Shown piece after piece: positions 45,287 through 52,459 of a DNA stretch of 64,000 nt; positions within the stretch are counted from its first letter, which is position 1, and the number at the start of each line of letters is the position of its first letter. Below the pieces are notes generated by a model. It was not told the DNA's origin and did no database searches. It saw only the letters and a list, made by a program, of their open reading frames with translations. The translations under genes and the position numbers were made by a program. The DNA lies in the NCBI GenBank assembly GCA_965204505.1, contig CBDBFB010000002.1:2370778-2434777 (forward strand), read 5' to 3'. The DNA is from an uncultured Candidatus Binatia bacterium (GTDB taxonomy: Bacteria; Desulfobacterota; Binatia; UBA9968; JAJDTQ01).

Positions 45287-45358
45287 GTAAGCTCAACATT
45301 CATCAGGGCTTCGATGCGGTCAGCCACGCGTTGAGCGGGCTCCCGGAGCTGCTCGACA
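45287..45358. repeat. About 70-bp remnant of a tyrosine-integrase 3' end; direct repeat of 52392-52459
   Basis: The minus strand reads ...VEQLREPAQRVADRIEALMNVELTVSVDLIP*. The 49-nt core ttcgatgcggtc.gc.a..cgttgagcgggctcccggagctgctcgac is shared with the integrase 3' end at 52411-52459. Confidence 0.7.
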
Positions 45359-45783
45359 CGGGCTTGCAGAGCTATTCCTCGGAAAAGGGTGAAGCCGAGA
45401 CCCCTGAATACATCGTCTTCAACGGTCACGCGCAGTCGCTCGTGAAGAACCAGCTCAAGGCCAACGTGGGCGAGACGGTGCGGCTCTACGTGGGCAACAT
45501 CGGGCCCAACAAGATCTCGTCCTTCCACGTCATCGGCGAGATCTTCGACGCGGTGTACCGGGAAGGGTCCATTGGCAATCCGGAGAAGAACATCCAGACG
45601 ACCCTCATTCCCAGCGGCTCCGCCTCCATCGTGGAGTTCAAGGTGGACGTGCCGGGCACCTACTCGCTGGTGGACCACGCCATCTTCCGTATCCTCCGGG
45701 GCGCCGCGGGCGTGCTCGCCGTGGCTGGGGACGAGCAGCCTGACATCTACGCCGTCAAGCAGGCAGGGTCCGGGGCAAAGTAG
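45359..45783 (+). pseudogene. Cupredoxin-domain fragment resembling the C-terminal domain of copper nitrite reductase (NirK)/multicopper oxidase. The N-terminal two-thirds is missing
   Basis: EYIVFNGHAQSL...VGETVRLYVGNIGPNKISSFHVIGEIFDAVY...IQTTLIPSGSASIVEFKVDVPGTYSLVDHAIFRILRGAAGVLAVAG follows the NirK C-domain pattern (VFNG...H.IGG...T..IPgG.A....F..PG.Y..V.H....A...GA.G...V.G). It abuts the integrase remnant with no plausible start. Confidence 0.45.
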
Positions 45784-46460
45784 CTACAACCCAACCGCCG
45801 TGGCCTTCACGGCCGCGGTGTCGCTGGATCGACGGAACGGCGTCGGCGGGTTCGAGGTTGAACCGGTCGGTGCCGTTTTTCGTCCTCCGAAGGGAGGGTT
45901 TGTGTGTCGGTCCGTCCAGGGCTATGTCATTGGCCGCCGTTGAGCAATCCTAACGCATGCTGAAACCCATGAAAGGACTCCTTGGCGCATTCTGCGCCGG
46001 ACCGGCGCTTTTCATCTGTTTGCACCGGTACACGACTGACATACGGCCGTGTTACGGAGAGAACACGCCTTTTCCATGGTCATGCGGACAGGACGCTAGC
46101 TAGCCGCGCGGGCAGTTGTGGAATCTCCCGAGTTGCGGTGTTGTGATCGCCATCCAAGGCGCGTCACCCTTTCCACCACACGTGCGCGTCATATCCCTTG
46201 ACAATCAGGCGCACCCCGTCCTAACGTCTTCCTTGCGATCAACTACGCGGAGCCCGTGTGTCGGGTCATCCGCCGAATACAAGAACCCTCGCACGGGCAC
46301 GGGGTAGCTCCCTGTGCCTTGGTGAATACGCGGAACCTCCACAACTCCGTTGTAGTTGGTCGCAGTGGCCCGGCAATCCTGCCGGGTCGTGGTGATCTAT
46401 TCGATGGTCCGGTGTTGAGAATTGCCCACGGGTCTATCGGTCCATCAAGAGAGGTTCGAG

Positions 46461-50365: not shown

Positions 50366-52091
50366 GCATTTGCTGCATCACTTGGCGTCAATCTATGACC
50401 GGGGGCGACTGGTTCCTCTGCTTGGATCGGGAATGTCGAGGCCTGCATGCGTGGACTGGCCTACGTTCGTGGGATGTCTGGAGAAGCAGGCCGACCTTGA
50501 TGGGTCATCCTCGAAAACCGCAGATTGCGCGGACCTCATCTCCCGGGCCGAAGTGGCGATGCGGTATCTTAGGCTTGGCGGCTACGATGTCGCGGCGTGC
50601 GTCGGCAAGGCCGTGTACGCGCAGGACGGAGAAGACTCGGTGCCGTGTCAGACCAACGCGCTCGCGCGTCTGTTCTGGCCGCTGGTATGCACCACAAACT
50701 ACGACGATGTGTTTCTTCGAGCGAAGGTAGCCCTATCAAGTCCTCCGCGCGTCCGCGGCCGCAACTACGACGATTGCCATCGAGTCCTTCAACACCTCCG
50801 TTTCCCGATGGGCGAGACCGTATGGGCGCTACAGGGCTTTCTCGGGCCTCGCGCTGACATTGCGGACGGATTCCAGGGAATCACCGATCTCAAGTCGGAG
50901 ATCGTCGTGGGGCATGCCGAGTACCGCCGGACGGCGAACAGGGAGCCACATTTCCGACGCTGCTTTGCGGAGGTCTTCCGGAATTCGTCGCTTCTGTTCC
51001 TCGGCGCAGGGCTAGCGGAACCCTATTTTCTGAGCCTGTTCGACGAGATCATCGAACTGACCGGTCCGTCCATCAATCCTCACTTCGCGGTCGTCCAGGA
51101 AGGCGAGGTAGACCCCGATTTCATGCGGCGCCGTTTCCACATCGACTGCACGGTCTACAAGCCGGGCGACCATCAATTCGTTTGCGAGTTCTTGACCGCA
51201 CTCGCCGACACGATCGCCGATGATCGGGTCCGCCAGCGGTCCTGGGGCGTCGTCGTGAAGGCGCCAAGAAAGGTTTCGTCAGGTGGGGAAGACGACTTCA
51301 CTGTGGTCCGAGCGAAGTTGCCCGACCCCGATGATCTTCCCGCCAACGAAGCCGTGGCCATCAGCTGTGGGCGTCAATACGACAAGGCAGTGCCGGGGGT
51401 AGAAATTGCGGATTCGCTGGGGTTGGTTGGGGTTCAGCCACGATGGTACGGGGACGAGAAACTATTTTCGACCTTTCTGCGGGACCAAGGGCGCTGCGTT
51501 TACGGTATCACTGCAAGGGAGGGGGACAAAGATGATCGGCGGACGCCACGGGTCGTGAACGAAGCGTTTCGGCGGGCACTCGACATCGTCTGCGGCAAGG
51601 ATTACCAAAGGCTTCACGTGCAGCTATTGGCTGCGGGACCGGACCGGAGCTTCCGTCAATGGATTTCGCTGGTCCAGATGGCGCGAGCCTATGGAGCGTG
51701 GTATCGCAAAGGCACGAAGAACCGCATTCGCGTGTCCGTCTACGTGGTGGACCCGTCTGTGATCACCTTGCTCTGCGGCGGTCATCTCGACTTGGCAGAG
51801 CATCTGGACGACACGTCGCTCAGGGTCGGTGTCATGATCATCCCGACACAGGGACTCGTCGAGCGCTACCTTGAGATCGTTCCTCCGGCGTGCACAGTTA
51901 GGACCATTCTCCACGATCTGCCGACACGGGATGGAGTCACTCACGGGGATCAGTGGCCGCACCTCGAAGTCTACCCTCCAGTCTACCGAGGCACCGAGCC
52001 GGCTCGGGTGCCGTGGAGCTTGGAGACCCCAATCGAAGAACTGGGACTGGTGTCCGGGAGTACGCTCATCGTCGACTACCGTGCCCGGTGA
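50349..52091 (+). CDS. SIR2_2-like (defence-type sirtuin-like NADase fold) protein with an unassigned 280-aa C-terminal domain
   Basis: LVPLLGSGMS (GAGxS-type motif), LVCTTNYDDVFL (TTNYD motif), IVVGHAEY and SLLFLGAGLAEPYFLSLFD (GxSxxD-type motif) follow the order of the Thoeris ThsA/DSR-type SIR2 domain. Residues 300-580 show no motif I can assign. Confidence 0.6.
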   Translation: MNGMNEHLLHHLASIYDRGRLVPLLGSGMSRPACVDWPTFVGCLEKQADLDGSSSKTADCADLISRAEVAMRYLRLGGYDVAACVGKAVYAQDGEDSVPCQTNALARLFWPLVCTTNYDDVFLRAKVALSSPPRVRGRNYDDCHRVLQHLRFPMGETVWALQGFLGPRADIADGFQGITDLKSEIVVGHAEYRRTANREPHFRRCFAEVFRNSSLLFLGAGLAEPYFLSLFDEIIELTGPSINPHFAVVQEGEVDPDFMRRRFHIDCTVYKPGDHQFVCEFLTALADTIADDRVRQRSWGVVVKAPRKVSSGGEDDFTVVRAKLPDPDDLPANEAVAISCGRQYDKAVPGVEIADSLGLVGVQPRWYGDEKLFSTFLRDQGRCVYGITAREGDKDDRRTPRVVNEAFRRALDIVCGKDYQRLHVQLLAAGPDRSFRQWISLVQMARAYGAWYRKGTKNRIRVSVYVVDPSVITLLCGGHLDLAEHLDDTSLRVGVMIIPTQGLVERYLEIVPPACTVRTILHDLPTRDGVTHGDQWPHLEVYPPVYRGTEPARVPWSLETPIEELGLVSGSTLIVDYRAR

Positions 52092-52391
52092 CACTTGGCT
52101 CGTTACCTATCCCCCCTTGGGACGGAACGACTTCATCGACGCCCACGCCTCCAGCAGCGTGCCATCCACGCTGAAGTGCTCATCCGACAAAAGCCGGGCG
52201 TCCGAAGTGGTCAGCGGCGAGCCAAGCCTGATGCAGCCCCGGGACGCCCTCTCAATCAGCTCGAGACGAAGGACTTGAGCACCATTCCGCCCATGTCCAG
52301 GGTCCACCCATGCGGCCCGGACGCCTTGCTCGCTCAACTGCCGGTCGAGGTCGGCCGGCGCTACCCGACTCCATGTTGAGATCACCATGGA

Positions 52392-52459
52392 TCTCAACAT
52401 TTCATCAGGTGTTCGATGCGGTCGGCGATTCGTTGAGCGGGCTCCCGGAGCTGCTCGAC
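52392..52459. repeat. Integrase 3'-end copy of the direct repeat (partner of 45287-45358)
   Basis: See 45287-45358. Confidence 0.7.

Follow-up and report, generated by a model that had tools for sequence, protein, structure and literature searches.

The question raised by this locus is why a copy of the end of an integrase gene lies 7.1 kb from the intact gene in a 64-kb stretch of DNA from a Binatia-like bacterium (64,000 nt, referred to here as the window), and whether the copy arose by a site-specific reaction or by decay. As judged from the sequence, the 67-base copy is probably a real scar of a second, almost wholly deleted mobile element, and we put the probability of this reading at about two in three.

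The repeat pair and the resident integrase

The two copies form a direct repeat, with 60 of 67 nt identical and one 1-nt gap (local BLAST, E 1e-18).

45292-45357, minus strand: left repeat copy, an orphan integrase 3' end (the orphan tail) encoding VEQLREPAQRVADRIEALMN
52393-52459, minus strand: right repeat copy, the last 22 codons and the stop codon of the intact integrase, encoding VEQLREPAQRIADRIEHLMKC

An earlier note on this DNA had reported 70-bp direct repeats, and its coordinates were correct to within 5 nt. It had described the right copy as the last 22 codons of the integrase gene with downstream bases, which agrees with the 22 codons and stop of the 408-aa integrase found here, and the left copy as the C-terminus of an otherwise absent integrase, which also holds, no other integrase homology being present in the window. 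A perfect repeat core of 29 nt (CGTTGAGCGGGCTCCCGGAGCTGCTCGAC) occurs exactly twice in the 64-kb window, once in each copy, and none of 100 shuffles contained any match to it at three or fewer mismatches. Beyond the stop codon the similarity goes on for about 30 nt, to approximately 45262 and 52366, in a weaker form and with a 6-nt indel.

An assembly artefact could be favoured by the probable origin of the window in a metagenome-assembled contig and by the many repeats of the region. However, the repeat is too short for the collapse of a long-read assembly, the 29-nt core was reproduced by no shuffle, and the differences between the orphan and the resident tail follow the consensus of the integrase family. 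In addition, an independent short contig from a Logan-assembled run (P0362) carries a near-identical fragment of the nirK gene that adjoins the left copy, although the junction is not spanned; this fragment has an extension after the stop position. The coincidental match that the earlier note had allowed for was thus not found, and chance or artefact as the source of the repeat is extremely improbable.

The right copy belongs to an intact gene that stands on an element backbone.

52394-53620, minus strand: intact P4-type tyrosine integrase (predicted), 408 aa from MDTATAK
53767-64000, minus strand: element backbone, 85-94% identity to relatives, including a small ORF and a DUF4326-like gene (both minus strand)
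55286-58108: nested group II introns, cutting the 3' end of the toprim gene
58005-59024, minus strand: DUF7146-Toprim gene of the backbone
59196-59666, minus strand: SSB gene of the backbone
61164-63869, minus strand: Strawberry-notch-type helicase gene of the backbone, which runs off the window

The integrase reading frame is open to 53716 and would give 440 aa if counted from the first TTG. Its assignment to the P4-type tyrosine integrases is predicted from an arm-binding domain (PF13356, DUF4102; E 1.3e-17, 64 bits, cutoff 27), a SAM-like core-binding domain (PF13495, E 9e-6, slightly below its cutoff) and a catalytic domain (PF00589, E 9e-15). The motifs TGMRLGE, HGLRNAF, VNHA and TEGY presumably provide the R...HxxR...H/W...Y residues, these roles being assigned from knowledge of the family. 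An 11-bp inverted repeat lies across the stop codon (52373-52400). The helicase-SSB-toprim-integrase backbone is widespread, mostly in MAGs of Ca. Binatia, and the integrase family itself is very widespread, with 65-97% identity across Binatia, Thermodesulfobacteriota, Acidobacteriota, Gemmatimonadota and Proteobacteria; a tblastn search of plasmids with the integrase gave no match at E 1e-50. A tRNA gene was rejected as the target of the integrase, as the window contains none and no consistent tRNA was found beside the integrase in 38 loci.

The orphan tail and its junction with nirK

The orphan tail lies between two scraps of different origin, the second of which is joined to a third.

45226-45285, plus strand: scrap of 20 codons (KALDLATGRVAALRDEINRH) adjoining the outer flank of the orphan tail
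45358-46023, plus strand: nirK-locus scrap, 665 bp, 86% identical to positions 6111-6773 of the related locus L062
46017-46082, plus strand: E64, a 65-nt scrap of element backbone, joined to the nirK scrap

The orphan tail begins six codons past the tyrosine of TEGY, with no integrase body upstream, and its stop codon was lost through a 1-nt deletion at the family junction sequence. As an integrase gene it was rejected, since it is a relic without the catalytic tyrosine and the catalytic domain. It differs from the resident tail at 6 of 57 conserved positions and carries the family-majority base at five of these six; its RVADRIEAL is the majority form and the RIADRIEHL of the resident is the odd one, two of the changes being synonymous. 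The match to relative L021 is 53/57 for the orphan and 51/57 for the resident tail, a small difference, so the allelic argument leans mainly on the match to the consensus. Past the stop codon, the flank of the orphan tail is like that of relative L006 and unlike that of the resident integrase. These comparisons support the view that the orphan tail is a relic of a second, diverged integrase allele, neither a copy of the resident nor a chance match, and the left repeat, with about 100 nt of 3'-terminal sequence, is probably a non-functional relic of a second P4-type integrase gene. Its 5' edge falls at integrase codon 381 in the 408-aa numbering (413 in the 440-aa ORF). The resident tail was also considered as a recombinant at this codon, which was rejected because identity falls only gradually there. 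The 20-codon scrap on the outer flank derives from a small gene upstream of TrwC in relatives L011 and L014.

Sites attL and attR produced by one event are expected to share an identical or nearly identical core, with boundaries set by the homology of attP and attB. A duplication from one attP x attB event was rejected here, as the copies diverge by 10%, their differences following the consensus of the family, and as the inner boundary is a microhomology junction with the middle of nirK.

The nirK scrap consists of nirK codons ~205-345 (stop codon at 45781-45783), followed by the intergenic spacer and by ~22 codons from the start of the gene after it, and the NirK homology on the plus strand begins at 45358-45359, which is the repeat edge. 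The gene piece aligns to residues ~205-345 of an intact relative of 345 aa (P0361), so that the cupredoxin (NirK-like) domain reported earlier as lacking its N-terminal two-thirds does lack the N-terminal 59%. NirK has two cupredoxin domains, the N-terminal one including the type-1 and type-2 copper ligands. The stretch 45358-45783 was rejected as a NirK and is a gene fragment, with the C-terminal domain only and a sub-threshold match to Pfam Cu-oxidase_2. The same nirK stretch is matched by plasmid nirK genes annotated as copper-containing nitrite reductase. The earlier note had proposed a check for an intact NirK-like gene in a related genome, and one of 345 aa was found in L062, in a housekeeping neighbourhood with no mobile genes, where the order is a glyoxalase gene, nirK and a gene for a protein of 313 aa. 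The 150-aa ORF at 45331-45783 (public gene call P0121) takes its first nine codons from antisense integrase and the rest from the nirK fragment; being such a chimera, it has no place in a count of denitrification genes.

The junction between the orphan tail and nirK shows a microhomology of 2-4 nt and coincides with the end of homology on both sides, and the junction between nirK and E64 is a second one of this kind with a 4-6 nt overlap of the TGTTTG type, both microhomologies being read from related alleles and not from the true parental nirK allele. These observations support an illegitimate, deletion-type junction at the inner edge of the orphan tail, which would also have cut nirK. The origin of the tail from another allele and this type of edge agree with the earlier proposal that most of an older integrase was deleted.

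The enclosed interval and the layout of relatives

Besides the nirK and E64 scraps, the interval 45358-52392 holds only an autotransporter gene and a SIR2_2 gene, the former preceded by a conserved segment.

46210-46392, plus strand: conserved segment upstream of the autotransporter gene
46422-49988, plus strand: autotransporter-type gene, probable start at 46461
50349-52091, plus strand: SIR2_2-domain protein gene, 580 aa

The repeats therefore do enclose the autotransporter and SIR2-like module, as had been stated (a PF03797 protein and a SIR2_2 protein). The first gene is predicted to encode a type Va autotransporter with a signal peptide-like N-terminus (MIKVLVFLILAVFAASWGADA), a passenger and a C-terminal beta-barrel (PF03797 in the last 400 aa, E 5.3e-10, 39.9 bits against a cutoff of 26), and contains five tandem repeats of ~315 nt. 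In L011 the segment in front of it precedes a cargo gene for a secreted protein, and the cargo regions of L007, L010 and L006 contain it as well. The SIR2_2 protein, which gave weak PADLOC matches only and has homologues located in other defence islands, is probably a single-gene defence protein. E64 lies a few hundred nt 3' of TrwC in relatives, and the copy in the interval is antisense to the integrase, as in relatives with a reversed layout such as L024 and L006. The interval had no match in phage and only the nirK matches in plasmids. Because a second illegitimate junction and a host-derived nirK scrap lie inside it, the interval is a patchwork and no clean cassette, and the 7.1-kb cargo block of the earlier note is not supported as a coherent unit. 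Two neighbouring insertions with chromosome between them would account for the patchwork no less well than a tandem array would.

The repeats are direct, contain the 29-nt perfect core and flank the entire insert, and relatives include cargo blocks set between direct repeats of other backbone pieces, as in L011 where a 260-bp direct repeat surrounds 3.1 kb of cargo. These features would also be explained by a Campbell-type insertion, in which a circular DNA with a tail-homologous stretch, the nirK scrap and the autotransporter and SIR2 genes entered the resident integrase tail by a single homologous crossover and duplicated the tail. However, homologous integration would have very little to work with in 67 nt of 90% identity, and the illegitimate junction of tail and nirK would have to exist in the circle beforehand, so that this explanation costs one step more and saves none. 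The relatives, metagenomes, plasmids and phages searched contained no circle or block of this sort, and an insertion of this kind is very unlikely.

The family layout in relatives is helicase, SSB, toprim, integrase, variable cargo of 4-10 kb and TrwC, with the part from integrase to TrwC contiguous. In relatives with this contiguous layout, no contig was found to carry a second family integrase within ~150 kb, a result that speaks against routine tandem arrays; the integrase tail may thus be the edge of an internal cargo hot spot and not the end of an element. On the same two grounds, the tandem accretion proposed in the earlier note, taken as a site-specific process, was not upheld. No second tail was found within 10 kb of the integrase in 38 loci or among 52 related tails overall (16 from metagenomes and 36 from genomes), all of which are linked to integrase sequence further upstream. 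The fused arrangement of the window was seen in none of the 52, and no relative shows an intermediate or ancestral arrangement, which weighs against the history proposed below. A degenerate 44-nt pattern detected no orphan tails in metagenomes. According to the tail searches, orphans of the window type are not routine; about a crossover of the Mx8 kind at the family junction these searches say nothing. Relics of integrase genes with a preserved 3' end are frequent among relatives and have their boundaries near residues 170, 211, 256 and 339-348. The last cluster, which includes an in-frame deletion from box I to box II in L033, was considered as retention of the P arm and rejected, the breaks lying at conserved box II codons.

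The functional form of the accretion model would be a CIME-type element in tandem with an ICE, in which the tails are working attL/attR-type sites and the neighbouring integrase excises the 7.1-kb block or moves it in cis with its own element. Formally, the interval agrees with the definition of a CIME, having no integration or transfer genes, flanking direct repeats and a cognate integrase adjacent (PMC5704250). Throughout the family, homology in the backbone always runs up to the integrase stop codon and no further, conserved sequence gives way to variable sequence within the ORF, three codons short of the stop, and in L021 and L029 a near-perfect palindrome of 30-32 bp resembling a core site covers the stop codon. 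However, such palindromes are present in only 4 of 38 tails with differing axes, and were rejected as a family feature; DNA conservation is lower in the final 57 nt of the integrase gene than in the remainder; and the orphan, whose 1-nt deletion falls precisely on the junction sequence, retains no more than 57 nt of any would-be P arm and has an illegitimate junction, not an att boundary, as its inner edge. The lack of a second tail within 10 kb (0 of 52), the lack of a second family integrase within ~150 kb on the contigs with the contiguous layout, and the occurrence of SIR2 homologues without the autotransporter gene and without tails also speak against it. A search of the relatives' DNA examined for attL-type sites, in which the C'/P' sequences of L021 or L029 would lack a tail, found none. 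A CIME with working sites is unlikely, and any att function of the repeats is putative, the integrase tail being less conserved than the rest of the gene and the left copy carrying the 1-nt deletion.

In phage Mx8, attP lies within int (intP/intX) and a new 3' end is created by integration (PMC6070905). With this precedent, and with integrases 96-97% identical that bear four different C-terminal extensions, the orphan could be a piece of integrase displaced by normal integration at an attP inside the gene. However, it includes 57 nt from upstream of the family junction, which should have stayed with the integrase body; its 5' edge at codon 381/413 coincides with no family boundary; it lies downstream of the intact integrase and not one element-length upstream; and the 16 metagenome and 36 genome tails are all joined to upstream integrase sequence. 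A displaced piece of this type is already disfavoured and highly improbable. Rather doubtful, though less so, is the idea that the family recombination site overlaps the last integrase codons, each recombination rewriting the C-terminus as in Mx8 and the tails serving as att sites for cargo capture. If true, integrase-less cargo blocks such as the 7.1-kb interval would be captured, stacked and lost just downstream of the integrase.

Proposed history and known systems

The other side of the locus is occupied by a neighbouring element.

34111-34174, minus strand: second copy of E64, in the usual place 3' of TrwC, as in L014
34680-39719, minus strand: relaxase-helicase gene (TrwC) belonging to the neighbouring element and interrupted by an antisense group II intron
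35871-37865, antisense to TrwC: the group II intron in TrwC
39661-41654: second copy of this intron, 99.95% identical, at the TrwC 5' end
41629-41850: conserved TrwC-upstream segment, following the second intron copy

The window holds scraps of two element copies, namely two tails and two E64 pieces in opposite orientation, the second E64 copy being oriented like the integrase and TrwC. Decay is extensive in the neighbourhood, which contains at least seven group II introns, copies of IS66 and IS110 and intron-disrupted TrwC and toprim genes; an Rfam search returned group II introns only.

The best explanation is probably that two related elements were adjacent and that most of one integrase was lost through at least two deletions. 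These elements, members of one family, would once have been neighbours, either in tandem or parted by a piece of chromosome with the nirK locus. At least two microhomology-mediated (illegitimate) deletions would afterwards have removed the TrwC side of one element, and the same deletions would have taken everything upstream of integrase codon 381/413 of the other. The series left behind is the intact integrase with its tail, the SIR2 gene, the autotransporter gene, the E64 scrap, the nirK scrap, the orphan tail, the 20-codon scrap and the intron-disrupted TrwC. This history starts from the repeat, the allelic difference, the positions of both junctions, the intact nirK gene elsewhere, the family layout and the patchwork, all of which are observed. 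The events would have followed in the order given, and the elements would have been neighbours, as opposed to being joined by recombination between separate molecules. At most, the 29-nt core could support a rare RecA-type loss of the 7.1-kb interval. The whole arrangement is an ordinary by-product of mobile-element decay and no new system.

The scar itself matters little, as one more example of the decay and stacking of integrative elements, in which illegitimate deletions leave short gene ends and host scraps behind. The stretch just downstream of the integrase is the site of variable defence and surface genes in a little-studied Binatia element family, and the scar raises the testable question of where the att site of this integrase-element family lies.

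In hot spots of the SXT/R391 type, which lie between other backbone genes, exchange is ascribed to homologous recombination between tandem ICEs. The present family resembles them in that conserved backbone (the integrase on one side, TrwC and its upstream segment on the other) surrounds content that is different in every relative, mostly defence-like or surface-protein genes, and differs from them in that the variable stretch runs from integrase to TrwC.

In the Islander concept, displaced gene fragments mark island ends in tRNA and tmRNA genes (PMC4383910). As with those fragments, the present locus has a short duplicated piece of the 3' end of a gene, in direct orientation and some kilobases away from the intact copy. 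There, the integration reaction itself makes the duplication, and what it duplicates is part of the host target gene; here, in contrast, the duplicate is the integrase 3' end of what appears to be another allele, and the window has no tRNA gene.

As in Mx8, copies differ in the sequence that follows a fixed point close to the end of the integrase reading frame, so that near-identical integrase bodies have different C-termini. Unlike in Mx8, the orphan includes bases that precede that point, and it is not on the side of the intact gene that the Mx8 arrangement would require.

The ICESt1/ICESt3 elements of Streptococcus thermophilus form CIME-ICE tandems by deletion and accretion (PMC5704250). 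The likeness to their CIMEs lies in an accessory-gene interval without integrase or transfer genes, bounded by direct repeats and adjacent to a cognate tyrosine integrase, and in the decay of an older element by deletion. In those elements the repeats are att sites on the host target gene and cis-mobilisation was shown experimentally, whereas here the repeat is integrase coding sequence with an illegitimate inner edge and putative att function, and the interval contains a scrap of host origin with a second illegitimate junction.

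Direct repeat and its two integrase tails

The direct repeat formed by an integrase 3' end, as claimed in the earlier note, proved real: 45292-45357 and 52393-52459 align within the window with 60/67 identities and one 1-nt gap, a 29-nt perfect core is present at those two places of the window only, and no match to this core was found in any shuffle of the window. An artefact is hardly credible. Similarity extends about 30 nt past the stop codon, more weakly and with a 6-nt indel. The right copy is the final 22 codons of an intact P4-type tyrosine integrase (the resident integrase), the ORF of which is open to 53716.

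Resident integrase
52394-53620, minus strand: arm-binding domain PF13356, SAM-like domain and PF00589 catalytic domain

The left copy (the orphan tail) codes for VEQLREPAQRVADRIEALMN... and begins six codons past the catalytic TEGY tyrosine. No integrase sequence was found upstream of it, in agreement with the claim that the integrase is otherwise absent there. Within 57 conserved nt the two tails differ at 6 positions, two of them synonymous and the remainder giving I to V and H to A. The orphan tail has the family-majority base at five of the six, the resident integrase being the unusual one; it matches the tail of L021, a relative's locus, at 53/57, several other tails at 52/57 and the resident tail at 51/57, and its flank beyond the stop resembles that of L006. 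Judged from the sequences, such differences would be expected from two diverged integrase genes, unlike a copy made in place. A displaced integrase fragment of the Mx8 type is highly improbable as the source of the orphan tail.

A second tail within 10 kb was seen at 0/38 fetched loci, and in metagenomes all 16 matches to a degenerate tail pattern were joined to integrase sequence further upstream; the two-tail arrangement of the window is not recurrent. Integrase relics retaining the 3' end are frequent in relatives, so deletion decay of these genes is commonplace. Their boundaries lie near residues 170, 211 and 256 and in a cluster at 339-348, which coincides with the box II codons. Three independent relics share their breakpoint in the box II codons, G[LM]R|NAFITV (L033, ~10000-10190; L034, 10001; L048/L055/L056), the one in L033 being an in-frame deletion joining box I (TGMR) to box II. 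Conserved integrase motifs appear to be microhomology hot spots for deletion. The 22-codon orphan tail is the shortest relic seen.

Make-up of the interval between the tails

In the ~7.1 kb interval, plus-strand NirK homology starts at 45358-45359, exactly at the end of integrase homology. The fragment corresponds to about residues 205-345 of the intact 345-aa protein of the closest relatives, which bears out the claimed loss of the N-terminal part. The comparison suggested in the earlier note yielded an intact 345-aa protein, P0361, in contig L062, with housekeeping neighbours (HAD hydrolase, AhpC, dCMP deaminase, MmgE/PrpD, glyoxalase) and a 313-aa gene downstream. The segment 45359-46023 matches L062 6111-6773 at 86%; it runs from the 3' part of nirK through the spacer into the following gene, of which it includes the first ~22 codons. 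Microhomology at the integrase-nirK junction is 2-4 nt (CGAC against the L039 allele, GA against L062). At 46017-46023 a few bases (TGTTTG) are common to the nirK-locus scrap and a 65-nt scrap of element backbone, E64. In relatives E64 is found just 3' of the TrwC relaxase gene, as is a second window copy at 34111-34174. This second copy is in sense with the integrase, whereas that inside the interval is antisense to it, an orientation also seen in relatives whose layout is reversed. The short outer flank of the orphan tail adjoins X', 20 codons left over from a small gene located upstream of TrwC in L011 and L014. The order is X' scrap, orphan tail, nirK-locus scrap, E64 scrap, conserved upstream segment, autotransporter gene, SIR2_2 gene and resident tail. 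Given this series of scraps, joined illegitimately at two or more points, the interval is a patchwork; its origin by a Campbell-type insertion is quite unlikely. The 150-aa ORF at 45331-45783, publicly called as protein P0121, is chimeric: codons 1-9 read the integrase tail in antisense, and all later codons encode the nirK C-terminal domain; its plus-strand frame is open back to 45124, without a start codon there.

Four other contigs (L040-L043) have a nirK-like gene, 74% identical and also N-terminally short (216 aa), adjoining BREX (BrxC) genes, with globin-like and CO-dehydrogenase genes nearby. Its 5' side may be a recurrent island-insertion site.

Short nirK-like gene
10001-10651: in L040-L042
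6464-7114: in L043

The cargo of the interval encodes a 1188-aa protein with a signal peptide and a PF03797 autotransporter beta-domain, the passenger of which (46930-48372) has five tandem repeats of ~315 nt (105 aa) at 77-90% identity, and a 580-aa SIR2_2 protein with weak PADLOC matches only. SIR2_2 homologues of 73-74% identity occur in other defence neighbourhoods, which have neither the autotransporter gene nor integrase tails, and the interval had no relatives among plasmids and phages except nirK itself. On the sequences available, the autotransporter and SIR2_2 block is not one that travels together.

Integrase family and element layout

The integrase family is large and highly conserved (1530 clusters at E<1e-20), with 65-91% identity among the matches listed, which are labelled Deltaproteobacteria, Gammaproteobacteria, Rhodospirillaceae and Paracoccaceae. 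Scanning species-representative genomes gave 36 loci; Ca. Binatia MAGs supply the majority, a chromosome often holding several copies, and identity reaches 97%. The backbone right of the integrase is common to family loci at 85-94% identity.

Element backbone
52393-64000: small ORF, DUF4326, DUF7146-Toprim, SSB and Strawberry-notch-type helicase

In every comparison homology to relatives ends at the integrase stop codon (52390-52413). Across 38 distinct tails, conservation is kept through CTGATG and lost directly after it, three codons before the window's stop, and therefore near-identical integrase bodies bear different C-terminal extensions: integrases 96-97% identical end in MKC*, HAAVPTGDAG..., GATVPMEKG... 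or TLLMGSGAP... (3' ends of L001-L061; window 52393-52410). The same ending is also seen on integrases only 84-91% identical. This switch inside the ORF might mark a recombination site. A near-perfect palindrome of 30-32 bp, CTGATGAAATGTTGAG|CTCGACATTTCATCAG, has the integrase stop at its centre in L021 (11198-11229) and L029 (10712-10741) and is followed by a hairpin-forming stretch of ~75 nt common to both; the 11-bp inverted repeat over the resident stop (52373-52400) differs from it. Both the switch and the palindromes hint at an att core, as would suit a functional CIME, but conservation is lower in the tail than elsewhere in the gene, palindromes occur in 4/38 tails only, the orphan tail has lost 1 nt at the junction sequence and its inner edge is illegitimate, so that a functional CIME is unlikely.

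Downstream of the integrase, relatives have 4-10 kb of differing cargo, mainly on the opposite strand, and then TrwC, which is in sense in L011, L012, L014, L023 and the window and antisense in L005, L010, L015, L021, L024 and L027. No contig of the scanned loci held two family integrases within ~150 kb, which makes routine tandem arrays a less probable reading of the layouts than single elements whose cargo hot spot follows the integrase. Comparison of the loci did not reveal where the family's elements truly end, and no tRNA target is involved. In L011, a 260-bp direct repeat (3559-3819 and 6640-6900) that corresponds to the 5' portion of the small TrwC-upstream gene brackets 3.1 kb of cargo; it is another case of duplicated backbone pieces around cargo at the same hot spot.

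Surrounding mobile DNA and origin of the arrangement

The region amounts to a mobile-DNA graveyard. At least seven group II introns occur in the window, every one of them on the plus strand, as well as IS66 and IS110 copies, and a large serine recombinase lies at the left of the window amid intron and IS copies.

Introns and recombinase
551-627, 1336-1555, 4979-5555, 30071-32054, 35871-37865, 39661-41654, 55286-58108, plus strand: group II introns
3136-4899: large serine recombinase, 587 aa (Resolvase, Recombinase and Zn-ribbon domains)

TrwC is interrupted by an antisense intron (35871-37865), of which a copy with 99.95% identity lies at the TrwC 5' end (39661-41654). The intron stretch at 55286-58108 is a nested, antisense pair cutting the toprim gene ~33 codons before its end, a point across which relatives are contiguous. 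A large Calx-beta/cadherin-like gene of ~4.2 kb is present twice at 95-99% identity (7123-9495 plus 12117-13889, against 14053-18736), one copy being split by an IS66 (9494-12118) whose inverted twin, 96% identical, lies at 20615-23239. The C-terminus of the intact copy gave no PF03797 match, so the autotransporter label that both had received in the earlier note could not be confirmed.

With a probability of about two in three, the arrangement consists of parts of two related elements that underwent at least two microhomology-mediated deletions, with a sliver of the nirK locus left between. These deletions would have removed the TrwC side of one element and, in the other, all sequence preceding integrase codon 381/413, the chromosomal sliver having stayed between the two remnants. 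As for the earlier proposal of accretion followed by deletion, an older integrase and its deletion are supported, but site-specific tandem accretion is not established; two neighbouring insertions would account for the host scrap no less well.

The original observation was correct, and what it describes is an ordinary scar of low general importance. Element decay with integrase relics is already known. By form the scar is CIME-like, and the candidate att core at the integrase end of this family can be likened to the att core of phage Mx8 (PMC6070905).
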